DNA of 64,000 nt. Origin: Candidatus Helarchaeota archaeon. GTDB lineage: Archaea; Asgardarchaeota; Lokiarchaeia; Helarchaeales; RDOG01. Made by a program: the position numbers and the translations under genes. Below are positions 3,287-50,272 of the stretch, in pieces. The notes below the pieces were generated by a model. The model did not search any database. It saw only the letters and a list, made by a program, of their open reading frames with translations, and had not been told where the DNA came from. The stretch is taken from assembly GCA_019058315.1 (NCBI GenBank), contig JAHPZH010000002.1, positions 608,001 to 672,000 on the forward strand, given 5' to 3'. Numbering within the stretch: the stretch's first letter is position 1; the number at the start of each line of letters is the position of its first letter.

Positions 3287-4690
3287 ATGAGTAAAATTCT
3301 TCTCATAAGGCCAAAATTTAAAAAATTCTTACAGCCAAATCCTCCTTTAGGTCTTGGATATTTAGCTTCTATGCTCGAAAGTAAGGGTCATAAAGTAATT
3401 TTACTTGATTGTCAAGTATTGAGAATAAATTATAATGACATACTGAATTTTATTAAAAGAATAAATCCTGACTTAATTGGAATGACTAGTTTATCTTCTC
3501 ATTATAATAATATGGTAAAACTTTCTAATTTAATTAAAAGTGATAATCAAGTTAAAGATATCCCATTAGTTTTAGGGGGTATACACGCTTCGGCTTTACC
3601 AGAGCTGAGTTTAAAGGAATGTAAAGCTGATTATGTAATTGTAGGTGAGGGAGAACTTACTCTTACTGAATTAGTGGAATATATCGAGAATAAAGTAGAC
3701 ATTTCTAAAATAAACGGTTTGGTCTATTGGGAAAATGGAAAAGTAAAAATGAATGAGGAGAGAAATTTAATAGAAAATCTCGATTCTATACCTTTTCCCG
3801 CATGGCATCTTATGCCACCTCAGAAATATCCCAAAGATCCTCATGGGCATGAGTATATAAGATTCCCCTATGCTCCTATAATGACTAGCCGCGGTTGTCC
3901 TTTTAATTGTACTTATTGTGCTTCTAAAAATCTTTGGAAACGAAAAATTAGGTTACGAAGTCCGAAAAATGTTGTAGATGAAATTGAATTTTTAATAAAA
4001 AATTATGGAATAAAAGAAATTCATATTTGGGATGATAATTTCACTCTAATAAAAGATCACGTAATAGGAGTTTGTGATGAAATAATCAAAAGAAAAATAA
4101 ATTTAACTATAAAATGTCCTAATGGAATAAGGATTGATTCATTAACGCCAAAAATTCTTTATAAGCTTCGAGAAGCTGGTGTTTATCAAATGGCACTGGC
4201 TGTTGAATCAGGCAATCAAAAAATATTAGATAAAGTCAAAAAACAATCTAATTTGAATAAAGTTCGTAAGATTCTAAAAATTATAAAGAAATTTGACATA
4301 ATTACAAGAGGGTTTTTTATGATCGGATTACCTGGGGAAACTATAGAGACCATCTATGATACAATTGAATTTGCTTTAAATAACAATTTTGATTATGCTA
4401 GTTTTTTTCTTGCACAGCCTCTTCCTGGCTCTGATATATTTTATGATTGGGCAAAAGATAAAATTATTTCAAAAGACCTACTTTATATGGAATATGCAAC
4501 AACTCCACTTTTATCAAATTTAAAACCCAAAGTGCTGAAAAAATTGCATAAGAGAGCATTTCAAAAATTTTTTATTCGAATTGATTTCATAAAAACAATT
4601 GTTAAATACCCGAAAGCGTTTTTTAGGTGGGCAAAGAATATTGCATTTCAATTAATGAGACGTTTAGTTGATAGAAGTAGAGGAGAATAG
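3287..4690 (+). CDS. B12-binding (class B) radical SAM protein
   Basis: PPLGLGYLA, GGIHAS and VGEGE in the cobalamin domain; SRGCPFNCTYC; WDDNF; ESG; GLPGET. Confidence 0.92.
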   Translation: MSKILLIRPKFKKFLQPNPPLGLGYLASMLESKGHKVILLDCQVLRINYNDILNFIKRINPDLIGMTSLSSHYNNMVKLSNLIKSDNQVKDIPLVLGGIHASALPELSLKECKADYVIVGEGELTLTELVEYIENKVDISKINGLVYWENGKVKMNEERNLIENLDSIPFPAWHLMPPQKYPKDPHGHEYIRFPYAPIMTSRGCPFNCTYCASKNLWKRKIRLRSPKNVVDEIEFLIKNYGIKEIHIWDDNFTLIKDHVIGVCDEIIKRKINLTIKCPNGIRIDSLTPKILYKLREAGVYQMALAVESGNQKILDKVKKQSNLNKVRKILKIIKKFDIITRGFFMIGLPGETIETIYDTIEFALNNNFDYASFFLAQPLPGSDIFYDWAKDKIISKDLLYMEYATTPLLSNLKPKVLKKLHKRAFQKFFIRIDFIKTIVKYPKAFFRWAKNIAFQLMRRLVDRSRGE

Positions 4691-4693
4691 AAA

Positions 4694-6118
4694 TTGGATT
4701 TAACTTTAATTTTTCCACCAATTCAAAAAAGTGAGAGTTATAATCCATTTTATGAAACTCCTATGTTTCCTCCTCTAGGTCTAGCTATGATTGCAGCGAA
4801 GCTGGAGGAAGATGGGTTTAAAGTAAATATATATGATTGTGAAGTATCTCAAATTCATTTATCCCAATTAAAAAAAATTATAAATAAAGATAATCCAAAG
4901 GCAATTGGAATTACTGCTTCCACTTCTATTTATTTTCAGAGCAGAAAAGCTGCAAAATATTTAAAATATCACTTTCCGGATATCCCAATCATAATGGGTG
5001 GTCCTCATGTAACTATTTTTGCTTCTGAGACATTAAAACAAAATCCATTCGTAGATTATTTAGTTATTGGGGAAGGAGAAATTACTACTTCAGAGTTATT
5101 AGATTCAATAGAAAAAAATAAAACAATTTTTTCAGAAATTAAGGGTATTGGATACAGGGAGAATAGTCACATTAAAATTAATGAACAAAGACCATATATC
5201 AAAAATATCGATGAATTACCTCTTCCTGCACGGCATTTACTCCCGATGAAATTATATAAACCCAGTGAGAGGATAGTAAAAAGACCTCCAGCAAGTCATG
5301 CAATTTTCTCTAGAGGTTGCCCATTTCGATGTGGATTTTGTTCGAAAGCTATATGGGGAAAGACTATTCGAGAACGTAGCGCAGAAAAAGTTATTGAAGA
5401 AATTATCCATTTAAAGGAAAAATTTGGATTTCATGATATCATATTTGCTGATGACACTTTCACTATAAATAAAAAGAGAGTTATAAAAATTTGTAATTTA
5501 TTGATTAAAAATAAAATAGATATTGCTTGGAGTTGCTTGACTAGGGTCGACTGTGTTGATAAAGAGTTATTAATAAAGATGAAAGCTAGTGGATGTCATC
5601 AAATAGGATATGGTATTGAATCTGGTAATCAAGAAATACTTGATTTGATGAAGAAGGATATCACAATAGATCAAATCCGGAAGGCTTTTCAATTAACTAA
5701 TAGGGTTAAAATTGACACTCGTGCATATATCATGTTTGGTCTGCCTGGCGAATCCATCGCAATGGCACAAAATACCATTAAATTTCTAAAAGAACTTGAT
5801 CCTGACTATGCAAATATTTACATATATAGCCCTTATCCCGGAACCGAACTATTTGAGATTGCAAAGGAAAAAGGAGAAATAAAAAATTTTAATTGGACAG
5901 ATTTTGACAAATTTAATCCTATATACATTCCATTTGGAAGAAAAAGAGCTGAAATTCTTAAGACCTATAAACGAGCATTCTGGGAATTTTATTTTACTCC
6001 ACATTATATTAAAAAACGAATATCCAAAATTGACAATCTTTATGAGTTAAAGAAAAATTTCATTTTATTATTCAAATTACTTAAAGGTTTATTAGGAACT
6101 CCCGCATTAAAAAGTTAA
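4694..6118 (+). CDS. B12-binding (class B) radical SAM protein
   Basis: PPLGLAMIA, GGPHVT, GEGE, SRGCPFRCGFC, DDTF, GIESG, PYPGT. Confidence 0.92.
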   Translation: MDLTLIFPPIQKSESYNPFYETPMFPPLGLAMIAAKLEEDGFKVNIYDCEVSQIHLSQLKKIINKDNPKAIGITASTSIYFQSRKAAKYLKYHFPDIPIIMGGPHVTIFASETLKQNPFVDYLVIGEGEITTSELLDSIEKNKTIFSEIKGIGYRENSHIKINEQRPYIKNIDELPLPARHLLPMKLYKPSERIVKRPPASHAIFSRGCPFRCGFCSKAIWGKTIRERSAEKVIEEIIHLKEKFGFHDIIFADDTFTINKKRVIKICNLLIKNKIDIAWSCLTRVDCVDKELLIKMKASGCHQIGYGIESGNQEILDLMKKDITIDQIRKAFQLTNRVKIDTRAYIMFGLPGESIAMAQNTIKFLKELDPDYANIYIYSPYPGTELFEIAKEKGEIKNFNWTDFDKFNPIYIPFGRKRAEILKTYKRAFWEFYFTPHYIKKRISKIDNLYELKKNFILLFKLLKGLLGTPALKS

Positions 6119-14873: not shown

Positions 14874-17800
14874 ATGGCAAGTTTTATTCGCAAAAATTGG
14901 CTTAGAACTATTGTAATTATTGGACTTTTCGCTGCAGCTGGTGCTGCACCAACTATAATTGAACAACAAATGTTACCATTGGTCCAATTATCCGGTTTAG
15001 TTACTGATTACTATAACCCCCTTTCAGGGGATTTAAATATCGAAGATATTATTAATAATATTGTATCAATAAACGTTCTAGCAACAAGTGCTACTCAAAC
15101 TACTCTTTTAATTACGACTTATATCGTGAACCAACCTTATAATTTCTATCCAATGAAAATTCCTGCGCTAGATCTGGATTTATACTACAGGGCAGGTCGT
15201 CCATATGACAGTGAAAAGCAAATCATTCAGCAATTTAAAGCTGATCCTAATTTTGGTAGTTTAAAGGAGCCTATTTATGATCCTTTAAGCTATTCATGGG
15301 TTCGTACAATGAACATAATAATACCAAATGAAGTCAATATCCCAGTAGGAACACCTGGTCTTGTTAATGTATTGATAACAATGTATACTAATGGTCAAGA
15401 TGAGAACGCATTATCCCAAATGATTAGTACTATAATTAGAGAAGAAAAAATCCCTTCACAAAGACTTTTTGCAAGTGGAAATGTTTTCTTTATGGGAGTT
15501 CCTGTTCCTATATCCCTTGAAATCCCAGAATTCGCAATGCCTACTTCTGATGAAGAAGGTGCAGGTTTAACTGATTTGCTCTCTACATTTTTCTTAGATA
15601 TGGTTCCTGAAACAGATGATTTGGACTTTTTCCATTTAGCGGATATAAGGAATTATGATGATCAAAACAGAAATTTTTATCGTGACTGGAATGATACTAT
15701 TCTAAATGGATTAAAAGATGAAGGAGAAAATTTCACAGAGCCGCTTCTTGAAAACGGAACAATATCAGCTACTGCATTTTTAAGATTGACAGACAAATTG
15801 TCTATTGGCGGAGGGTCTGTCGAAATACCATCCTCCCCTTGGAATGTACAAGAAGGTCAAAATCAAACTACTGGTCTTCTAAATTATGGTGATTTAAGTT
15901 ATTGGGATTCAGAAAACATATTTGGTGAGACCAGATATACACCAAAAACAGAAATTGAAAATACTGTTTGGGGAACTGCTGAGCAACAACTTCTATTATA
16001 TGTTCCTGGTAGCCTCGCTGAGAGAATGAATCAGCCTAATTGGAGGAACCGTATTATAGGAGCAATTGGGTTCAATCGAAGTCAGTCAATGTCTCTAGAG
16101 AGTAGAGGCTCTTCCGTACCACTTCTTCTAAGTGCAGACATTAAAATTACAGGAGACGCCAGACCAAATGCAAATTTTACATCAGGAGATGCAATTAATA
16201 CTTTTATTCCACAACTAATAGATTATGGAAACGTTTCATTAGGAATTGTGGGAAATATAAAGGTGAAACTAGGTGAAATGCCACTTAGTTTAACTATTAA
16301 ATTAGAATTAGAACAAGATACCTCAAGTCTTTTGGGTGGAAGTTCGTCCAGTGTTGGAGCCTCGGGTCTTAGTGCCCTTCAGAATGGCGGTACAAGTACC
16401 TCAAGTATATTTGATATGATATTTGGGTATTTCAGTTTGAATAATATACTATTTAATGGGCTTGCTATGGATGTTTACAATAAAATCATGCAAGTAAACT
16501 CAACACTCGGTTTGGATTTATTCTTCCCTTACGGAATATACTTCCCTGATACCCCCGAAGAGGCAGAACAATTTCTAAGTTTGCAAGGTGGTCCAATCCA
16601 AATTTTCAATCAGTCAAAACCTGGAGAATGGGGATATTTAAATCAAACTTTTCCCTATAATAAGCCTGATGTAGTAATTAATGAGGATTTCGAAAGTTAT
16701 ACTGATGATAACGCGTGGCAAACAACTTCTCGATGGACAATTTACAATGAATCTGGTTCAGATATAACACTAGATTTATTCTCTGGAAAGTTAGGCTCCA
16801 GAGGGCTGATATATAATTCTGATGGTTCAGCAGATTGTCATATTGAAAACAGCTTTTCACAACAATTAGGTATATCCGGATTTTATTTTGATGTTAAAAT
16901 TAATACAACTCAAGGAGAATTCACCGCACTCCTACATAATAGTTCATCACCTATTATGAACTTAACAATTGATAGTCTTGGTAATATAAAAGTAAATGGA
17001 TTACAGAGTGCAAGGATTAATAATAATACAGATTCTTGGTATAGAATCTTTGTAACAACAAATTCTGATCCAATTGGGACATTTGATGTTACAATCGCTG
17101 GTATTGTAAATGAAACTCACACTGGAACAGGGGCAGAATCTCAATTCTGGCTTCCAAATATTATAACATCTGGAGATATCATCACAATTTACGCAATTAA
17201 TGAACAAGATGCTGAAGTTTCATTTGATGGTAATGATGTTAAGAACAATTTTGCTGTCAATCAGACTTTAGATAACATCTATTATGTAATGATAAATGAA
17301 TCATTTGATGGAGATGGCACAACATCAGACTTTACATTTGCTAATATAGCAAATACAACTGGAGCAACTGATGCAATAGTAGAAGTATTAATGTATAACG
17401 CTACAAATTCTACTCAAAAACAAGTCTTTACACATACAGCTGGTGTTCCTTCTGCTGGATATGAATATACGAGAAGTTCACAACAGATTTTCCTTTATAA
17501 TGCAGGAGTACTTTATAATCCGCCTATTGGATTCAAAATTAACACTACATTCTATGTAGAGGAAGATAATTATGATGCAATAACTGGCAATACAGTTCTT
17601 AGATTTCTATATAATCCCCCAGCAGACAATGCTACTGTGACTATAAGCTTTCATACAATTGATCGTCCAGTCTTTACGTATACAACATCACCAAGTACTG
17701 GATATCAATATAGATGGAATCCTACTTATAATCGAGTTGATTTATATTTAGATGGTTCTGATTATCTACTACCACTAAATTATGAACTATTCATCGATTA

Positions 17801-20800
17801 TAATTTAGGAACGGTAGTAGACGACGGCTCTTTTATTAATAATTTTATCCCAACAAACCTTACCTTAATGATGAATGATTCCTATGGACCAATATATATT
17901 GATAACGTCATGTTTAGAAATGCAAAAACCCTAGAAGAAGCCCAAAAACAATGGTACCAAGATCATTTACTATTTAATTTAACAATAGAAACAGAAACCT
18001 TAAAAGATACATTTGCAAAAATTTTATCTGAAATTGGAAGTTACAGGAATGGTATGGGTATAGCGTATCACTTTAATAGCCGTTATTTAATAGGTGCATA
18101 TGGAACACCCCAAGTTGGTTATTATAGTCAAGTTCTTGCTAATTTAAATGATCAAGCTACAGGTTATCCGATTGGTACGATGCCTACTGGAAATGACACA
18201 ATTGATGCTCAAAGAGGGTTACCATTAGCAAAGGTGCCATTTGAGATTAAATTAGATGACTTAAGACTTAATATTAAAGAAATTTTTCCACAATTCGGTG
18301 ATGGTGCCTCAAGTCTGCTTAATTCCATTGGTATTAATCCAAGTTTAATATCATACCTCAATAAATCATTAGATGATTGGGGAGTACAAACTGGTAAAGG
18401 TAGTGGTGCTGGTAATACGGGAACTCTTGCAGACCTCTTATTATTCGATTTAAACCAATTTCTAAAAATTTTATATCAAGATGGACCAGCTAATGACTTA
18501 TTTGATTTTATGATTGATCAAGGTTTTCTTAACGAAACATATTCTGCATTAAATTTAACAGCTTTAGTAGATGGTGCCTTAAATTTGCTTGGAGCCGATG
18601 ATTTAATGAGTGGTGCTACAGGTGGAGAAGATAGTGAAGACTTGTTTACAATGCTTCCAGAGTTACTACAAGCAACAAACATAAATTTTGATGACATTCT
18701 TCCAGGTCTAATTGACTATTTAATTGAAAATATGTCATATGAAAATGGTGTAAAGCTTTTTGAATTACTTGATGTTGCACTGAGCTCTACAGGAACAGAA
18801 ACCGCAGATATAGCAACTGGAATTGATGATGAAAGCTGGTTTGTTCTTTTCGATAACCTAAAAGCGTTATTAAATATTATAGATCCTATGGAGCTTGCAT
18901 ATGTCGCTATTAATAACCCATTGCCATTTGTAGACTATCTGAATAGAAGTTCAATGCTCTCAGAATATACAGTCATGCCTTTAATTGAAAGTCTATTTTC
19001 AGAAATGGAAGGAGGAGAAGAATTTGATTGGGATAAATTATTACGAAATGCAGCTGGACTTATAGAAGGACTTCTTTTTGGAGTTGATATTCCAGATGGA
19101 ATTACGCAACCATGGGAAAATAAGGGCATTAATCTTTTCGCTATGTTACAAGCACCAGAAAGTATACAAGACTATGATCCATTTAGCAATCAGACAATAA
19201 CTCTTGAAGAAGCAAGAATGGCATTAGAAAATCTCTATAATACGGGAAAAGGACTGGAAATTCAACAAGTTGGTGAAGGAAATTATATTGCAGATACTCC
19301 ACCATACGATAATTTACGAGTAGTATCAACAGAGGCTTTGGCCCTTATGTTAGCTGGTTTTACAGCTGAAGATATCTATCAGTTGTTAGCAGATCTGGGA
19401 ATTTTAGATCTGACTCAACTAGGCAGCACTGGAGGTGATGATATGTTCTCTGGAATAAATGCATTACTGCCCATTTTGGGAATGCTTGTTCCTCCAGGTG
19501 AATGGATGTCTATTCTCAGAGAAATGGGAATCTGGAGCACTTGGGATGGCGACTGGGATATGATGGTTTATGTAGATATTTGGGGAATGATCACAATTCC
19601 AATTAATGTAGCTGCTTTGATGGGAAGATTAGTTAATCTAGAAAAACTCCTTGCAACTGGTATAATGGAAATCCTCCCTGACTTTCCTATAGGTGGTGGT
19701 CAGATAGATCTTTTTAATATTCAATTAAGCCTTAATGAAAATCAAAGTTATGGGAATCCTTATTTCTACCAAACTGGGTATGACACAAGTTCAACAAGTG
19801 ATTCTCAACGAACTGGACCTTGGAGACAAAAGACGACTGGTTTAACGACTTCTTGTGATAACTGGGGTTGGGTTCCCATGGGTTGGGATCCAGGTGGTCC
19901 TCAATATGGAAGTCCTTTAAAAAATTATTCTTCAGATACAGGTGATGATTATCCGAGAAGTGTGCTCTCAAAAGTAATTTCCAATTTACCTATCTCAATT
20001 GATCTCGATATTGATGAAATCGATATTCCTAGAACTGAAATCTTACGTTTTGGCATAATTTTTGGTGACATTGTTATAGATATCGAAATGACCTTACCTA
20101 TTGATTTAGCGGTTCGATTACGAATGGAAGGAAATCCTGCTTCAATGGTAAAAGAATTGGAAACCGCAGGTATGTCACCATATGGATTCTTAACACATCT
20201 TTATCCAAATCCAAACCAATGGATATATGATATGTTTGGAGATCTAGCTGGTGGCGGAGGCGGTGGTGGAACAACTAGTAACATGGATTATTTGGATAAA
20301 ATCTTTAACAATTTGGACTTATTTGTAGATGCACTATTTACAGCTGATACTGATCTTATGCATACTATGTCATTCTTACTAGATCCCGATTTTATGAAGG
20401 GTTCAAGGTTTTACTTAGATCCAAGCTATATGGTTTGGGATATTGTAAATAATGTAACTGGTCTCGAGGAAGAAAATCCCGCAAAATATACATTATATTG
20501 GGATTACGATTATCAAGCAAATGGATATGGCAACGTAACACAAAGACCTTACTTCGGTGATGGTGATGAGGTTCCGGATGAATATCCTTGGTATCGTTTC
20601 TTCTTACCAAGTTATAACCAACTTAATCCTCATCGTGGTCCTGGTACCTATTTGCAAGCTGATATTTATCGATATCCACTGATTCTTGATCAATATACTC
20701 CCCTTGGATATCCTGGTCAAGGATATTGGCTGAATACACCAGATGGCACTCCCGATGGAGTTCAACATTATTGGTACGATACTCCATATGCTTATATCAA

Positions 20801-23800
20801 TACTACTCCAAGTGCAAGCGATCCTTGGCCAAATGTTGACCCAGATGACTGGGCTAATCCTAATGGTAATACTGGATCAGGTTATTATCAATGGACTGTG
20901 GGTGGAACAACTTATTATTGGGGTGAAAATGCCCCAGCACATCCTGATAGAGCCGATTTCCCTTATGAACAAGTTCCATTAGTTGACATTGATATGGGTG
21001 ATTGGGCTACATATGCACCATTATATTATGGATGGGCCTCAAATCCGGCACATCCGGTCTATGCATCTGGTGAAGCAAATAATAATTTTGGTACAGCTCC
21101 AGTCCATACTTCAATACAAGATACTGATAGTTATGGTTATCCCGACATCTGGGCTAGCTTTGCTTTTGCTTTGGATCAAACAGATTATAGATTCGGATAT
21201 TGGGAGAAAAATACAACTGCGCATAGTGTAGATAACACACCTTATGACTACTTAAACTGTCTACCTTTCTGGACTTTATTAAGTTTAGGTGTTACACCAC
21301 ATTTAAGTGGTGCAATAGATTTCTTCGATATTCCTGGTATGATGACTGATGTAGCTCAAGTTGCTACAGCTAATCTTGGTTCTGATTATTGGCATAAATC
21401 GGAATATAATAGGACTTATAGATGGTTTGAACCACACTGGGATTATATTGATAACAAAGGTTTTGCATATGAAGATAATGTATCATTAGGAGTTGATGGT
21501 CTGGTTACCATGAATGGAGCAGCAACAGCCTTTACTTCATATGGAAATCCGGTATGGACTGATTATGGAAATGGAACTGTTAAGGTCTGGAATAATATTG
21601 AATATTATGGAGATCTTTATGACGTAGATTTAAATCCATTTGGTTTGCTTCAATGGATCTGGGATGGAGCATCGGATGTTTTCAAATTGAATGATACTGG
21701 AGGAATACCTAAATATGAGTCATATATGACGAAATACCTCGCACCTTATTCAACACCTAACTTAAAGGGAGCTTTAGAATGGTTAGCTGATAAAGGTTTT
21801 ACAATTGATCACATATTGAATATCCTACCAACACTTATTGAAGATTTAAGTTCTTCTGCTGCTGGATCAACAGATATGCTAACAGACATGCTTGGTACTG
21901 AAACAATAGTAAATTTTATCAAATCAATGGAAGATTATTATAGAAGAGTTCCTGCTATAATAAATAGGACTGATTGGGCACTAAATCATGATCCAAACAG
22001 CCCAAATTACCTACTAGATATGGCCCAAAACCGAACTAGAGCAGCAGAGTTAATCCTTGAAGGATTAAGTGACTTTCCTGAGATTTTAGATATTAATCCT
22101 GCAAAAGCTGCAAGAGGAGCATTATCCTATTTAATGCCACGTGTAGCTGATATTTTTGGAACAGGTGGTGTTGGTGGTGAAGGCGGTACGGAAGAATTGT
22201 TAGACGGCTTAAACGACTTATTACACGATAGCGGTTTAGTGGACATAATTTTCGAAGATACAAGTAAAATAAGAAACCTTGCCTTAGACCTCTCAATTCA
22301 AAATACTATGTTGAATTTAACATTTATGGGTTGGAAGTTCATTGATATTCAATTAGACGATCTTGAAATTACCTTCAATTTAACCGAAATAGGAGAAGCT
22401 CTTGGTAATGAAGAAAGTGGCAATGGTGGTGGCGATTTTCCAATCGAATTACCACTTGATTTTGCGTCACCATTCCCATATATTGAGCTATCAACCTTTA
22501 ATGGACCATATGAGGTTACTTTTCAAGCATTAAATGCATCAAGTAGTCCAAATCCGGCTGAAATTGCAGGCGTTGACGTCTCATGGGGTCAAGTCTATTA
22601 TTGGGCAGATCCAGACGACCCATCTATAAATACATATTACTTCAATGTTACAATGTACGACTCTCCATTATCTGGCTGGTACAATGAGTCACTATTACCC
22701 GATATTCCACCGAACGCAAAGTTGTATATCCATAATGTATCCGATTTTGATCTTACACATACTAACGCTACTGGTCATGTCACTTTCTATGGTAATATTG
22801 GAGAAGATAATTTTGGTTGGGTTGATCCTTATGTCTATGTCCATGTCGAACCAATTGATTTACCTAACTTATTCTATTACTGGTGGAATGTAACAACAAT
22901 CTCAACTCAATTGACTTTAGGTGGTCATCAAGAAATTCAAAAGGCACGTTGGGTCACACCAAGAAGTGATGGTAAAGTTCCAAATATTGTTATACAAACT
23001 GCAACACCTTTCGACTCATACGTCACTGATATAGATAATGATGGTTTATCTGAAATCTTTGCTAGAGTCGAAATTGATAATAATACAATGTCAGATGTTC
23101 AAAAGATATTCTTTATGCCAAATGGTACTATAGATACTATAAATGTATCACATGCACTAGGATATGATATAGATCTTTGGGCTGATAGTAATATAATTCA
23201 GAATGATACTTGGGATGTCGACGGACTTGGTGGACAAACTAAATATACATTCTCTGAAGAAGTGACCCCTGATGGCTCGAATATAGTTTATCCAGTTTCG
23301 CCCAAGCTTATTACTGGAATTCAAGTAAATTCTGGTACTTGGATTGATGACTCTTTAACTAAAGCACAAATATACTATTATGATATCGAAGATGAAGATC
23401 AAGATAATCCAATCTATCTATTAAACTGGGACATAAGAGAAAATCAGTATATGGGAAGTTATGGTGGATGGGTCGAGAACTTAACTGGTAGTAACCGTTT
23501 AAGTATGATATATCCCGATACGTCTCCTACACAGCCTGAGACTTTAAGTTGGACAGTATTTGGTCAACTACAAGCAAGTGCAAACGCATCTAGAGGTGTG
23601 ACATTAGTATATGATGAAACTACTTATGGTGGTCAACAATACACTAATTTATATAGAATATGTGATTTAGATCTATTTCTCACAAATGTAACAGGCGCTA
23701 ATAGACTTAAAACACTCACTAACCTTGAACTTTGGTATTATGATTATTATGTGCCTGAAGGAGATGGCTATGGTTCAAAGAAACAATCTCTAATCTATTC

Positions 23801-25319
23801 ATATAATGGTAAATCAGTATTTCCGGGAACAACATACACTATTAATCGTGAACTGGGCGGAAATCCGACTGTCTTAGGTTACACAAATTCTGGTATGAAT
23901 TCATCAACTGCAGGTTATGATTTAATTTGGAATGGTCCATATCATCATCGTGATACTGGTGCTCACCATGCTTACTTTACCTATGTATTCCCAATTCCTT
24001 CAGATGCTTTTATTTCGGAAATCTTTTGGAATGTAACAAATCTAGATGATACTACGGCAAGCGGAATTAGTATTACTAATTTATCAGCATTCTACGGTGG
24101 CACTGGTCCTGCTGATCCAAATCGGGGTTGGAAGACTATAACAACTCCTGGATACGGTGGTGGTGGTGTCTATAGTGGTTCAATATACTCACAAACTTCA
24201 GTTGGTGGAACTTACTCAGATCCTTGGTCCCCTGGACATACACATCATTTATACCTAACAAGTCGTGGACAAGACACTTCTGAAACTTGGGAATATTTAA
24301 TGTTCGAAGTATATGTTCAAGATGATTTTATCACAGGTGCACAAGGTTGGGCTAATTTAGGATGGAATGATACAGATCCACCATTAGCCGATCAAGTAAA
24401 TAATCCATTGCCTGTCACTTTACTGTTAGAAATTAGGACTTATGATTTTCTCGATGAATGGGGTATGAATAACTTTGAACTTCCAGAAGGGCTAATTTCG
24501 GGATTCAAAGTTATCGCTACTATGTGGGATCCTCAAGAAATTGACGACTCTATTTCACCGACTTTCTATCCCAATTTCACAGTTTCTTATAAAACAGTTA
24601 GAATGGAAGACGGTTCTAATCTATTTCCATATGTGAATAACTCTATTCTTACGCCAAAAGTATATATCCGACTTGATATGGAAGATTCCATTGTTAATGA
24701 GGATGTAACAGGTGGTCGTGGGGATACTTTATATGTAGATCATAATCGCACATATGGATACCTTTGGCAACCATTACAATCAGCTAATCTACCATATGTT
24801 ACGACGAACTCGAGTATTCTCAATGTGGAATCAGAATTTTTAATTACAGTAAACGTAACACCTGATAACGCATTACGCAATTATTACCTCAATTTGACCT
24901 TACCTAACAGTAGAGGTTATATTGAACCAAAGCTAGGCAGACTAATAGTTATAAGCAATAATCCTGATGTTCAAAGGAGAATGGGAACATTTCCACCAAA
25001 AGTGATAATAGATCCGCGCATATTAAACGCAACATATCCATATCCACATATATATCGATTAGGAACCAAAATCGATTTAGATCCTACAACATACGAATAT
25101 TCTATTGAATATCATTTAACTTTCAGAGTTTCTGCACTGTTTCTAAAAGATTGGAGAGAAAATTACGCAACAAGTAATCCGTTTGAGAGATTCTATTTCT
25201 CTTGTGTCTGGGACAAACCTAGAGGTACTTTTGAATCTATTACTGAAAGATATATCAAAGCAACGACTTTTGGTCCGTTTGGAAGAGAAGAATATAGAGA
25301 AGTTTATATCCAAACTTAA
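14874..25319 (+). CDS. Giant (3481 aa) exported or N-terminally anchored protein with LEA_2/DUF3712-like repeats and inserted beta-sandwich domains
   Basis: Uninterrupted 10.4-kb ORF; N-terminal hydrophobic segment; acidic; many NxS/T; Gly/Ser linkers followed by amphipathic helices; Ca-binding-like DIDNDG. Confidence 0.75.
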   Translation: MASFIRKNWLRTIVIIGLFAAAGAAPTIIEQQMLPLVQLSGLVTDYYNPLSGDLNIEDIINNIVSINVLATSATQTTLLITTYIVNQPYNFYPMKIPALDLDLYYRAGRPYDSEKQIIQQFKADPNFGSLKEPIYDPLSYSWVRTMNIIIPNEVNIPVGTPGLVNVLITMYTNGQDENALSQMISTIIREEKIPSQRLFASGNVFFMGVPVPISLEIPEFAMPTSDEEGAGLTDLLSTFFLDMVPETDDLDFFHLADIRNYDDQNRNFYRDWNDTILNGLKDEGENFTEPLLENGTISATAFLRLTDKLSIGGGSVEIPSSPWNVQEGQNQTTGLLNYGDLSYWDSENIFGETRYTPKTEIENTVWGTAEQQLLLYVPGSLAERMNQPNWRNRIIGAIGFNRSQSMSLESRGSSVPLLLSADIKITGDARPNANFTSGDAINTFIPQLIDYGNVSLGIVGNIKVKLGEMPLSLTIKLELEQDTSSLLGGSSSSVGASGLSALQNGGTSTSSIFDMIFGYFSLNNILFNGLAMDVYNKIMQVNSTLGLDLFFPYGIYFPDTPEEAEQFLSLQGGPIQIFNQSKPGEWGYLNQTFPYNKPDVVINEDFESYTDDNAWQTTSRWTIYNESGSDITLDLFSGKLGSRGLIYNSDGSADCHIENSFSQQLGISGFYFDVKINTTQGEFTALLHNSSSPIMNLTIDSLGNIKVNGLQSARINNNTDSWYRIFVTTNSDPIGTFDVTIAGIVNETHTGTGAESQFWLPNIITSGDIITIYAINEQDAEVSFDGNDVKNNFAVNQTLDNIYYVMINESFDGDGTTSDFTFANIANTTGATDAIVEVLMYNATNSTQKQVFTHTAGVPSAGYEYTRSSQQIFLYNAGVLYNPPIGFKINTTFYVEEDNYDAITGNTVLRFLYNPPADNATVTISFHTIDRPVFTYTTSPSTGYQYRWNPTYNRVDLYLDGSDYLLPLNYELFIDYNLGTVVDDGSFINNFIPTNLTLMMNDSYGPIYIDNVMFRNAKTLEEAQKQWYQDHLLFNLTIETETLKDTFAKILSEIGSYRNGMGIAYHFNSRYLIGAYGTPQVGYYSQVLANLNDQATGYPIGTMPTGNDTIDAQRGLPLAKVPFEIKLDDLRLNIKEIFPQFGDGASSLLNSIGINPSLISYLNKSLDDWGVQTGKGSGAGNTGTLADLLLFDLNQFLKILYQDGPANDLFDFMIDQGFLNETYSALNLTALVDGALNLLGADDLMSGATGGEDSEDLFTMLPELLQATNINFDDILPGLIDYLIENMSYENGVKLFELLDVALSSTGTETADIATGIDDESWFVLFDNLKALLNIIDPMELAYVAINNPLPFVDYLNRSSMLSEYTVMPLIESLFSEMEGGEEFDWDKLLRNAAGLIEGLLFGVDIPDGITQPWENKGINLFAMLQAPESIQDYDPFSNQTITLEEARMALENLYNTGKGLEIQQVGEGNYIADTPPYDNLRVVSTEALALMLAGFTAEDIYQLLADLGILDLTQLGSTGGDDMFSGINALLPILGMLVPPGEWMSILREMGIWSTWDGDWDMMVYVDIWGMITIPINVAALMGRLVNLEKLLATGIMEILPDFPIGGGQIDLFNIQLSLNENQSYGNPYFYQTGYDTSSTSDSQRTGPWRQKTTGLTTSCDNWGWVPMGWDPGGPQYGSPLKNYSSDTGDDYPRSVLSKVISNLPISIDLDIDEIDIPRTEILRFGIIFGDIVIDIEMTLPIDLAVRLRMEGNPASMVKELETAGMSPYGFLTHLYPNPNQWIYDMFGDLAGGGGGGGTTSNMDYLDKIFNNLDLFVDALFTADTDLMHTMSFLLDPDFMKGSRFYLDPSYMVWDIVNNVTGLEEENPAKYTLYWDYDYQANGYGNVTQRPYFGDGDEVPDEYPWYRFFLPSYNQLNPHRGPGTYLQADIYRYPLILDQYTPLGYPGQGYWLNTPDGTPDGVQHYWYDTPYAYINTTPSASDPWPNVDPDDWANPNGNTGSGYYQWTVGGTTYYWGENAPAHPDRADFPYEQVPLVDIDMGDWATYAPLYYGWASNPAHPVYASGEANNNFGTAPVHTSIQDTDSYGYPDIWASFAFALDQTDYRFGYWEKNTTAHSVDNTPYDYLNCLPFWTLLSLGVTPHLSGAIDFFDIPGMMTDVAQVATANLGSDYWHKSEYNRTYRWFEPHWDYIDNKGFAYEDNVSLGVDGLVTMNGAATAFTSYGNPVWTDYGNGTVKVWNNIEYYGDLYDVDLNPFGLLQWIWDGASDVFKLNDTGGIPKYESYMTKYLAPYSTPNLKGALEWLADKGFTIDHILNILPTLIEDLSSSAAGSTDMLTDMLGTETIVNFIKSMEDYYRRVPAIINRTDWALNHDPNSPNYLLDMAQNRTRAAELILEGLSDFPEILDINPAKAARGALSYLMPRVADIFGTGGVGGEGGTEELLDGLNDLLHDSGLVDIIFEDTSKIRNLALDLSIQNTMLNLTFMGWKFIDIQLDDLEITFNLTEIGEALGNEESGNGGGDFPIELPLDFASPFPYIELSTFNGPYEVTFQALNASSSPNPAEIAGVDVSWGQVYYWADPDDPSINTYYFNVTMYDSPLSGWYNESLLPDIPPNAKLYIHNVSDFDLTHTNATGHVTFYGNIGEDNFGWVDPYVYVHVEPIDLPNLFYYWWNVTTISTQLTLGGHQEIQKARWVTPRSDGKVPNIVIQTATPFDSYVTDIDNDGLSEIFARVEIDNNTMSDVQKIFFMPNGTIDTINVSHALGYDIDLWADSNIIQNDTWDVDGLGGQTKYTFSEEVTPDGSNIVYPVSPKLITGIQVNSGTWIDDSLTKAQIYYYDIEDEDQDNPIYLLNWDIRENQYMGSYGGWVENLTGSNRLSMIYPDTSPTQPETLSWTVFGQLQASANASRGVTLVYDETTYGGQQYTNLYRICDLDLFLTNVTGANRLKTLTNLELWYYDYYVPEGDGYGSKKQSLIYSYNGKSVFPGTTYTINRELGGNPTVLGYTNSGMNSSTAGYDLIWNGPYHHRDTGAHHAYFTYVFPIPSDAFISEIFWNVTNLDDTTASGISITNLSAFYGGTGPADPNRGWKTITTPGYGGGGVYSGSIYSQTSVGGTYSDPWSPGHTHHLYLTSRGQDTSETWEYLMFEVYVQDDFITGAQGWANLGWNDTDPPLADQVNNPLPVTLLLEIRTYDFLDEWGMNNFELPEGLISGFKVIATMWDPQEIDDSISPTFYPNFTVSYKTVRMEDGSNLFPYVNNSILTPKVYIRLDMEDSIVNEDVTGGRGDTLYVDHNRTYGYLWQPLQSANLPYVTTNSSILNVESEFLITVNVTPDNALRNYYLNLTLPNSRGYIEPKLGRLIVISNNPDVQRRMGTFPPKVIIDPRILNATYPYPHIYRLGTKIDLDPTTYEYSIEYHLTFRVSALFLKDWRENYATSNPFERFYFSCVWDKPRGTFESITERYIKATTFGPFGREEYREVYIQT

Positions 25320-48692: not shown

Positions 48693-48759
48693 TTAAACAC
48701 CTCGTTGCCTTATTTATTATTTTTAACCTTATAATTACCAAGTTAAGATATAGGTTTAT

Positions 48760-49375
48760 TCTTTCATTTGAAACTTCGATCTCGGTCTAGAACTCCTGTA
48801 GAGGAACGTTTGAGGGTTAAACATCTATAAAAAATTTAGGTTTGCGATTTGGCATAACGACTAAGGGGATACTTTTTTTACCCTTAATTTGGTTCGAATT
48901 TCTTCCTCGAAAAGCGTTTAGTTTTCTAAACGCTTTTGACCCTATGAGTCTCGGTTGGAAACTCAATAGGTATTTTTTGATCAAAATCTCTGAATCAAGG
49001 TAATCAGTAAGTTTAAGCCTTTCATCGACCCTATTGTCTAAAAATTTAGGCTTTATGACTTCTTTTTGATTCCGAATAACATCATAGTCTTTGATTATTT
49101 CAGCGGGCTTGTTATTTTGTAGTGGAATCATCAAATTATAACAGGTTGCTTTAACTGGTTCCCCTCCAATAGAATACCCGAAAAAAAGCTTTTCAACATA
49201 ATTAAATTTGTGGTGATAATTATTATCGATGAATCCAATAATTATTAAATAAAGTCCAACTGCAAACAAAGACCCATTGTTCTCTTTCAAAAAGAAATCA
49301 CCACAATACTTACCTTTGTTTTTTGTTTGAAAAAACCAAGTAATATGCGGATATTGTGGTGGATATTTTCTTTTT
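48760..49375 (-). ncRNA. Candidate large structured RNA of unassigned family (boundaries approximate)
   Basis: At least 8 helices, including a perfect 12-bp hairpin, a 10-bp closed multiway junction, crossing pairings and a long-range 8-bp helix; several imperfect pairs read as G-U on the minus strand; TATA-like tatatataaa near 49380. Confidence 0.55.
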
Positions 49376-49468
49376 ATATATAGATTAAAAAATCAAAAAA
49401 ATGAGTTTATTATAAACGTAAATAATTATTTCCAAATCTTGAAAGTATCTTTTGAGGTGAATATGTTT

Positions 49469-50272
49469 ATGTGTCCTGAATTTAAGACTGTTCTTTATGA
49501 AAAAAAGAATGCTGTAGCTGTCATAACTTTAAACCGTCCTAAAAAATTAAATGCTTTGAATTCTCAGATGAATAAAGATATAAAATATGCTTTTAAAGAA
49601 GCCAAAGAAGATAAAGAAATCAGATCTATTGTTCTTACTGGTGCTGGACGAGGTTTTTGTTCTGGAGCTGATGTTTCGGACTTTTCTGGGGGTGTAACAT
49701 TGAGGGATTTTAAAAAAATGACCGAAGAAGGAGTAACACCTGAAACCATTATTACACCGTATGATCTATTGGATGTTCCTAAACCTATTATTGCAGCAGT
49801 GAATGGAGTAGCGGTAGGTTTTGGAATGAATGTACTCCTAAACTGTGATATTATTTATGCATCTGAAGATGCTACTTTCGGAGAATTTTTTATTAGAATG
49901 GCTGTAATTCCCGATATGAATGGAAGTCTCCTATTACCCATGTTAGTTGGAATTCATAAGGCCAAAGAATTGATTTTTACTGGTGATAGAATTGATGCTA
50001 ATGAGGCATTACGAATTGGGTTGGTGAATAAAGTATTTCCAGCAAATCAGTTGATGTCTGAAACAATGAAATTAGCAAATAAATTAGCTGAGGGTCCTCC
50101 TCTTGCTTTAGCAATGTCAAAGAAGATAATTCATGAAGGGTTTAAAAAGGTATATGATACAATGCTTTTAAAAGAACTTCAATATCAAACGAAATTATAT
50201 ACTACGAGGGATCATAGAGAGGCTGCGATGGCATTTCTAGAAAAAAGAAAACCAAAATTTAAGGGGAAATGA
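49469..50272 (+). CDS. Enoyl-CoA hydratase/isomerase (crotonase family, PaaG-like)
   Basis: LNRPKKLNAL, FCSGADV, KPIIAAVNGVAVG, IPD, AFLEKRKP.F; GAGGTGA at 49454-60 favours the ATG at 49469. Confidence 0.9.
   Translation: MCPEFKTVLYEKKNAVAVITLNRPKKLNALNSQMNKDIKYAFKEAKEDKEIRSIVLTGAGRGFCSGADVSDFSGGVTLRDFKKMTEEGVTPETIITPYDLLDVPKPIIAAVNGVAVGFGMNVLLNCDIIYASEDATFGEFFIRMAVIPDMNGSLLLPMLVGIHKAKELIFTGDRIDANEALRIGLVNKVFPANQLMSETMKLANKLAEGPPLALAMSKKIIHEGFKKVYDTMLLKELQYQTKLYTTRDHREAAMAFLEKRKPKFKGK

Follow-up and report, generated by a model that had tools for sequence, protein, structure and literature searches.

A narrowly distributed Helarchaeales gene whose structured messenger RNA may hide its own ribosome-binding site

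The 64,000-nucleotide (nt) stretch of the Candidatus Helarchaeota archaeon genome analyzed here (contig JAHPZH010000002.1; hereafter the window, in whose coordinates all positions are given) carries on its minus strand, between positions 49384 and 48745, a strongly folded segment which a previous sequence-only reading had described as unassigned and tentatively as a novel large non-coding RNA (ncRNA). A conserved open reading frame (ORF) occupies the segment, and the minus-strand gene to which it belongs is designated gene X. Its component parts are, in order, the A/T box UCUAUAUAUAAAAA, a leader of ~60 nt, the sequence UUGUGGUGAUUUCUUUUUG, a frame of 157 codons and ~70 nt of further conserved sequence. 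This gene is new and of narrow distribution, being known from a few Helarchaeales, and the loci of its homologues are labelled L012, L013, L014, etc.

The TATA-like box UCUAUAUAUAAAAA (49371-49384), which had already been pointed out and is indeed present, is the presumed promoter of the gene X transcript; it is identical or nearly identical in L012, L014 and L016, while distant homologues are merely A/T-rich at this position. From the location of this box we infer that transcription would start ~20-25 nt downstream, near 49352. The corresponding 5' untranslated region (5'UTR; 49291-49352) holds the conserved block AUAUUACUUGGUU and a leader hairpin (49360-49351/49309-49300), and exhibits 94% identity to that of L012, compared to 78-88% for other intergenic regions. 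The translation initiation region UUGUGGUGAUUUCUUUUUG (49288-49306) consists of the Shine-Dalgarno (SD) sequence GGUGAU (49302-49297), an 8-nt spacer and a TTG start codon (49290-49288), and all 19 of its nucleotides are invariant in every homologue covering that part. This invariance includes the spacer, even though the latter has neither a coding nor an anti-SD role. The SD is complementary to the 16S rRNA 3' end GGAUCACCUCCU of the same genome, in which two such 3' ends (…CUGCGG(C/U)UGGAUCACCUCCU) are located outside the window, on the same strand at the start of contig C5 and 4.7 kb apart (bases ~376 and ~5099). The ORF extends over 48817-49290, with its stop codon at 48819-48817. TTG starts appear to be common, being also assigned to the CMD gene (48692) and the PGK gene (51315), which are preceded by the SDs GAGGUG and GGAGGU, respectively. 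The N-terminus of the gene X product is missed in several existing annotations, since three homologues are annotated from an internal ATG (codon 54) and one from an internal codon that leaves it seven codons short.

Gene X is present as one copy in the 5.8-Mb genome according to BLAST, nhmmer and a protein hidden Markov model, and protein searches of large collections established a family of ten members, including that of the window, all of which derive from sediment-type assemblies and are recorded as Helarchaeota where named, with one labelled Hodarchaeota. Outside its own genome, no copy was found among 151-161 genomes of the class by DNA, protein and profile searches or by a covariance model of the 130-nt core. 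Three weak protein-profile matches in the class-wide search contained internal stops and found no confirmation with nhmmer. Among 40 relatives, a DNA search returned only short A/T-rich promoter matches, and a class-wide pattern search allowing two mismatches gave counts equal to those of the reversed-pattern control. A 17-nt pattern, which proved too short, retrieved at least 120 loci in metagenome contigs, all of them chance matches according to nhmmer, and a 20-nt pattern retrieved five matches in genome contigs, these being bacterial and likewise attributable to chance.

The usual gene order at the locus is GAPDH, PGK, ferredoxin, enoyl-CoA hydratase, X, CMD, methyltransferase, zinc-ribbon protein and luciferase-like oxidoreductase, and five independent contigs place gene X at an equivalent syntenic position, i.e., between a divergent ferredoxin (or enoyl-CoA hydratase) gene and a co-directional methyltransferase (or CMD) gene. 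The single copy and the constant slot rule out the proposal that the segment represents RNA of a non-autonomous mobile element. A leader dedicated to the downstream AhpD/CMD gene, which had also been suggested, is similarly ruled out because L013 and L157 are devoid of the hydratase and CMD genes, yet retain gene X between ferredoxin and methyltransferase. L012, the closest full relative, contains an insertion of ~280 nt (4545-4866) between the conserved 3' end of gene X and the CMD gene, in which a 53-residue ORF is called on the opposite strand and which is absent from the window and from L014. L015, an 859-nt metagenome contig, shares ~97% identity with the window, a similarity that begins only at the internal ATG (codon 54); its upstream part is an unrelated gene of 146 residues joined to gene X, so that it represents either a truncated or rearranged copy devoid of the initiation region and the 5' arms of helices H1 and H2 (described below), or a chimeric assembly.

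The frame that begins at the invariant TTG is open in all eight full-length copies, in which it encodes 133-163 amino acids (aa). Across the first 132 codons of seven aligned sequences this frame (frame 0) contains no stop column, as opposed to frames 1 and 2, which display 30 and 36 distinct ones and in which stops have been gained and lost frequently between lineages; frame 0 is also open in L157. Each sequence carries 13-19 stops in the other two frames over ~160 codons, and the longest stop-free run of 191 codons exceeds the maximum of 140 observed in 5000 shuffles (P < 1/5000). The ratio of nonsynonymous to synonymous substitution rates (dN/dS) is 0.34-0.52 for frame 0 in close pairs, compared to 0.79-1.46 for frames 1 and 2, and amounts to 0.2-0.5 over the first 56 codons. 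In distant pairs the value for gene X is 0.6-1.0, reaching ~1 against L013, compared to 0.04-0.23 for neighbouring genes. As judged from these comparisons between homologues, the frame of gene X has been kept open under purifying selection that is weak. The sequence-only reading had itself named purifying selection on the 157-aa ORF as a finding that would speak against a novel large ncRNA, and such frame-specific selection, weak as it is, is what was found (dN/dS 0.34-0.52 as against 0.8-1.5, with the frame open in 8/8 copies).

The 3' end of the frame is variable, and this variation centres on a run of seven A residues (48873-48879) which represents an indel hot spot, downstream of which homologues differ in reading frame. 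L012 and L014 are one base shorter in this run and stop at a conserved CUUAG, where L144 and L157 also stop; the window, L013, L015 and L142 read past CUUAG, while L143 ends earlier, at a TGA at codon 134. A programmed -1 frameshift at the A run was considered and dropped, as L012 possesses just A5 at this position, which makes ordinary indel variation the more likely explanation.

The deduced product exhibits a hydrophobic N-terminal segment (residues 7-21) followed by a basic remainder (27 Lys and Arg versus 15 Asp and Glu), and may from its sequence be a small membrane-anchored basic protein. The hydrophobic stretch is short, and with a Kyte-Doolittle maximum of 1.43 a membrane anchor is no more than possible. 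The protein returned no match in Pfam, NCBIfam, PADLOC, PHROG or PDB, and none that was usable in the protein Atlas. In its central part the protein has a single invariant block (Q75 and E77), which coincides with the 3' arm of helix H1.

Conservation of gene X is distributed in a manner that points to the RNA as well as to the protein. Relative to L013, the dS of gene X is 0.54, while that of five neighbouring genes is 1.3-1.9; conversely, its dN of 0.54 is 3-5 times higher than that of the neighbours (0.10-0.18). Conservation takes the form of a mosaic, in which invariant blocks of 19-25 nt are interspersed with saturated stretches, and recent transfer followed by neutral drift, which was contemplated as a cause of the low dS, does not fit this mosaic. 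The conservation of paired columns exceeds that of unpaired ones by 13-15 points, alike at first, second and third codon positions. Of the protein's 25 invariant residues, 18 fall in helices. In the 3' domain (48745-48865), where nucleotides are conserved irrespective of frame, CUUAG (48865-48861), AUGCCAAAU (48855-48847), UCUACA (48802-48797) and GAUCG (48781-48777) are maintained as nucleotide motifs despite being in differing frames or beyond the stop. The alignments demonstrate, at the level of sequence, that nucleotide conservation extends over ~120 nt around and beyond the variable stop, and that a frame-independent constraint acts on the gene X RNA. Downstream of the conserved 3' part, T-tracts are found in L013, L157 and L144.

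Consensus folds were obtained with RNAalifold from seven and from eight sequences, and pairing was counted across eight sequences. The principal helix, H1 (49301-49287/49069-49055), comprises 15 base pairs (bp), in which the tail of the SD, the spacer and the start codon face the 3' arm UCAAAAAGAAGUCAU (49055-49069, codons 74-79); 14-15 of the 15 pairs are retained in 8/8 sequences, and every internal substitution is an A to G change opposite U. A second partner of the initiation region is the anti-SD-like sequence AUCACCACAA (49208-49217, codons 25-28), which pairs with the SD region 49306-49297 at 10/10 positions in 8/8 sequences, the sole change being an A to G in L142 that yields a G-U pair. 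This SD:anti-SD helix overlaps H1 by five bases and crosses both H1 and H2, and therefore represents an alternative state or a pseudoknot. Enclosed by H1 is a core domain (49120-49240) with 88% mean column identity over nine sequences, which in the consensus fold contains H2 (49240-49226/49134-49120; codons 17-22 with codons 53-57) and, inside the latter, H3 (49187-49180/49167-49160) and H4 (49155-49148/49142-49135). H2 retains 10-14 of its 15 pairs, with a shifted register in L142 that involves a U-to-G and a U-to-C change.

The remaining helices are conserved to differing extents. The 5'UTR segment ACUUGGU (49341-49335) forms a 7-bp helix with AUUGAGU (48961-48967, codons 108-110), of which 6-7 pairs are present in 8/8 sequences, with three variable positions and one pair-breaking change (L013). 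The leader hairpin is maintained at 8-10 of 10 pairs in close relatives and L142, and at 6-7 of 10 elsewhere, while H5 (48781-48771/48989-48979) retains 10-11 of 11 pairs in close relatives and 4-7 in distant ones. H7 (48910-48937, codons 118-127; AAAAGCGUUUAG-AAAA-CUAAACGCUUUU) is a 12-bp hairpin that is perfect in the window and retains 6-12 pairs in homologues, with double compensatory changes from U-A to C-G (L015, L012 and L013) and from G-C to A-U (L143); it is the only conserved local helix of the 3' domain. Across the eight sequences, 5-10 pairs show double changes. The fold is well supported by conservation together with complementarity, although not yet proven by covariation.

All of the pairings listed in the sequence-only reading are complementary where it had placed them, i.e., 48910-21/48926-37 (12/12), 49015-20/49048-53 (6/6), 49208-17/49297-306 (10/10), 49067-73/49124-30 (7/7), 49054-59/49081-86 (6/6) and 48800-07/49158-65 (8/8), the hairpin at 48941-70 being complementary at 9 of 13 positions. 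Their conservation is uneven: 49208-17/49297-306 is retained at 10/10 in 8/8 sequences, but three of the seven, 49015-20/49048-53, 49067-73/49124-30 and 49054-59/49081-86, are not conserved and drop to 3-5 pairs in homologues, and the long-range pairing over ~350 nt (49158-65/48800-07) is kept at only 5-8 of 8 positions. The proposed preference for the minus strand was borne out, since the consensus helices contain 90 G-U cells and only 6 A-C cells in the homologue alignment, compared to 21-57 A-C cells in shifted controls, which favours a minus-strand RNA. Similarly, the absence of a match to a known RNA family was corroborated by the lack of any Rfam 15 match at the gathering score in the 64-kb window; at E <=10 only noise was returned, the best being mir-308 with 19.7 bits against a gathering score of 60. 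A C/D-box small RNA was also considered and rejected, as the UGAUGA and CUGA motifs are ~125 nt apart, which is too far. The observation underlying the sequence-only reading is largely right; its 'non-coding' interpretation is not.

The minimum folding energy of the minus strand is -145.3 kcal/mol, corresponding to a z-score of -3.7 when 60 dinucleotide shuffles are employed, compared to -2.7 for the plus strand (with only 20 shuffles a value of -7.1 was obtained). Shuffling of synonymous codons, by which the protein and its codon composition are kept, raised the mean energy to -125.7 kcal/mol (z = -3.25), and 0/100 shuffled sequences were as stable as the natural one.

The most conserved blocks of the gene X RNA are complementary to each other, and their predicted pairing takes in the initiation region. 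The predicted unpaired probability of positions -16 to +3 is 0.34 for transcripts ending at +40 to +75, decreases to 0.21 after the anti-SD-like block and to 0.07 after the H1 partner, while the initiation regions of six control genes give values of 0.25-0.60. An internal complement to the gene's own initiation region that is as long as 10 nt is found in only 3 of the 1240 SD-bearing ORFs of the genome, among which gene X is tied for the longest. The divergent enoyl-CoA hydratase gene (49439-49469, plus strand) also has an initiation region predicted to be nearly fully paired at ATG 49469 (unpaired probability 0.04), which may be an artefact of the choice of start, as TTG 49439 and two nearby ATGs are further candidates.

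On balance, and at somewhat better than even confidence, we consider the segment to be the transcript of a small protein-coding gene of a narrow clade, the structured messenger RNA (mRNA) of which hides its own ribosome-binding site. The growing transcript would probably fold shut over this site, such that the finished mRNA would be closed to ribosomes; initiation would then be limited to nascent RNA, or would depend on a trigger that opens the fold. Ribosomes travelling over codons 25-79 would in turn hold the initiation site open, in which case the frame would have to stay open within the structured part while much of the protein sequence is permitted to drift.

Several findings weigh against this interpretation. 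On the side of the protein, the AlphaFold2 model lacks a confident fold (mean predicted local distance difference test score, pLDDT, 31.8), the codon log-likelihood ratio of gene X is 0.196 compared to a mean of 0.469 (standard deviation 0.118) for coding pieces, and its codon usage lies at approximately the 1st-2nd percentile of the coding pieces in the genome. On the side of the RNA, the z-score of -3.7 lies within the range of 16 control windows of equal length (+1.4 to -4.3), two of which are at or below -3. As controls reach similar values, folding stability alone is suggestive, not decisive. The control with the lowest value (-4.3) is a 616-nt piece (24466-25081) inside a single ORF of 3481 codons (14874-25319, plus strand). 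Covariation across homologues, which the sequence-only reading had put forward as a check, is statistically weak and barely rises above column shuffles: in eight sequences 94.2% of cells are paired versus 93.7 +/- 0.26% in shuffles, with 25/500 shuffles reaching the observed value. Moreover, most pairs are invariant or changed on one side only, and the helices were counted on the very sequences from which they were derived, only ten sequences being known. Finally, the amount of conserved structure looks excessive for the hiding of a single ribosome-binding site.

A number of these findings would also be expected of an ordinary, fast-evolving orphan gene, in which the helices are incidental to AT-rich low-complexity sequence and nucleotide conservation is the product of protein constraint and strong codon bias. 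The clear ORF signals are consistent with such a gene, as are covariation barely beyond that of column shuffles (25/500), the two of 16 control windows that fold as far below expectation, and the fact that several helices are pairings of a U-run with a purine-run for which many alternative registers exist. We nevertheless regard this explanation as unlikely, because it does not account for a dS only about a third as high as in five neighbouring genes in combination with a dN 3-5 times higher, for motifs that are kept out of frame and past the stop, or for an invariant untranslated spacer whose exact complement is the one invariant block in the protein's central part. The synonymous-shuffle z-score (-3.25) and the ratio of G-U to A-C cells (90 to 6) also argue against it.

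A further possibility, rather improbable in our estimation, is that the ~620-nt fold is a functional, Helarchaeales-specific large structured RNA of a switch-like or trans-acting nature which has kept or acquired a translated frame; the passage of ribosomes would then form part of how the RNA works. In its bifunctional form, in which the fold has a job of its own (sensing of a ligand or protein, or action in trans) and the main purpose of translation is to protect the RNA or reshape its fold, this explanation is distinctly improbable. Conservation of structure and sequence over the whole ~620 nt, including the 3' domain outside the frame, conserved blocks with several mutually exclusive partners, weak constraint on the protein (dN/dS 0.6-1.0 in distant pairs) and a product devoid of a confident fold or family would all be in keeping with it. 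Against this stand the absence of a recognizable ligand pocket, ribozyme core or known motif (the Rfam search being empty), a 3' domain which apart from H7 lacks conserved local helices, and the dN/dS of 0.2-0.5 over the N-terminal 56 codons, which represents a real protein signal.

The mutually exclusive long-range pairings predicted to sequester the ribosome-binding site, together with the hydrophobic N-terminus and basic tail of the product, are furthermore reminiscent of a type I toxin-like module, i.e., a membrane-active protein whose mRNA is kept inert by long-range folding until it is freed by processing or by an antisense RNA, as in the analogous mechanisms described for dinQ (PMC5066626) and timP (PMC13000454). 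Such a module is very doubtful here: the product measures 133-163 aa and not less than ~60, the gene is present as a single copy in a conserved housekeeping neighbourhood, no conserved antisense ORF and no PADLOC match was found, and the hydrophobic segment is short (Kyte-Doolittle maximum 1.43). A pure ncRNA with a frame open by accident of composition is barely credible, for while the lack of a protein family or confident fold, the poor codon usage, the dN/dS of ~1 against L013 and the coincidence of all conserved protein motifs with helices would suit it, 132 codons are open in seven aligned, diverged sequences and in L157 where other frames turn over 30-36 stops (P < 1/5000 by chance), dN/dS is below 1 in frame 0 only, and an invariant SD lies at the correct distance from an invariant start codon.

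The conserved fold spans the entire coding region and restricts synonymous sites. Should the mRNA of gene X be confirmed to hide its own ribosome-binding site, it would be a clear natural example of an archaeal gene in which protein and RNA codes overlap, and would allow the handling of occluded SD sites by archaeal ribosomes to be studied. It would also serve as a warning that calls of 'structured intergenic RNA' in AT-rich Asgard genomes can conceal small genes with TTG starts. If the fold turned out to be a functional RNA that is also translated, Asgard archaea would gain with it their first described large conserved structured RNA as well as their first described dual-function coding RNA.

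Among known systems, gene X shares with the large ncRNAs represented in Rfam (RNase P, SRP, OLE, GOLLD, HEARO, ROOL, raiA and group I/II introns) a size of ~600 nt and a multitude of helices; it differs from these in that its fold is filled by a conserved ORF and in that no model matches. In bacteria and RNA phages there is ample documentation of mRNAs whose long-range folding onto their own ribosome-binding site controls translation; literature searches found no report of such control in archaea. The hok mRNA, for example, adopts mutually exclusive folds and has an untranslatable primary transcript. The same has been described for the mRNAs of the type I toxins dinQ (PMC5066626) and timP (PMC13000454). 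Gene X resembles these mRNAs in that its initiation site is locked by alternative long-range pairings, its RNA is conserved beyond the needs of the protein and its product has a hydrophobic N-terminus. It is distinguished from them by a product of 133-163 aa, its archaeal origin, its single copy in a conserved metabolic neighbourhood and the absence of any sequence relation, and it falls outside the type I toxin class, failing on product size and genomic context.

Long-distance interactions also control initiation at the maturation gene of the RNA phage MS2. Such interactions have likewise been reported for the RNA of phage Q-beta (PMC2978339). As in these phages, the fold of the coding RNA of gene X would limit initiation, possibly to nascent chains, and the structure comes at a cost in synonymous freedom; unlike them, gene X is a chromosomal, single-gene transcript of an archaeon. 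In the icaR mRNA of Staphylococcus aureus, an anti-SD motif in the 3'UTR pairs with the SD in the 5'UTR (PMC3868564), and gene X is comparable in that distant parts of its mRNA pair with the initiation region and its 3'UTR is conserved. The well-conserved partners of gene X are, in contrast, located inside the coding region, and the pairings of its 3'UTR are partial (4-11 of 11 for H5 and 5-8 of 8 for 48800-07).

Together with the type I toxin mRNAs, the closest parallel is offered by Bacillus subtilis, in which anti-SD-like sequences lying hundreds of nt within a coding sequence pair with the ribosome-binding site and prevent initiation; genes are as a rule depleted of them (Gill et al. 2025 preprint, PMC12697547). 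Gene X similarly possesses two such elements, the pyrimidine-rich AUCACCACAA at 74 nt downstream of the start and another at 222 nt, both of which are complementary to the SD and start codon and are predicted to close the site. Unlike in bacteria, where such elements are depleted as harmful, those of gene X show strict conservation throughout the homologues, an indication of regulatory use; an Asgard lineage keeps unchanged two internal anti-initiation elements of a kind that bacterial genes purge.

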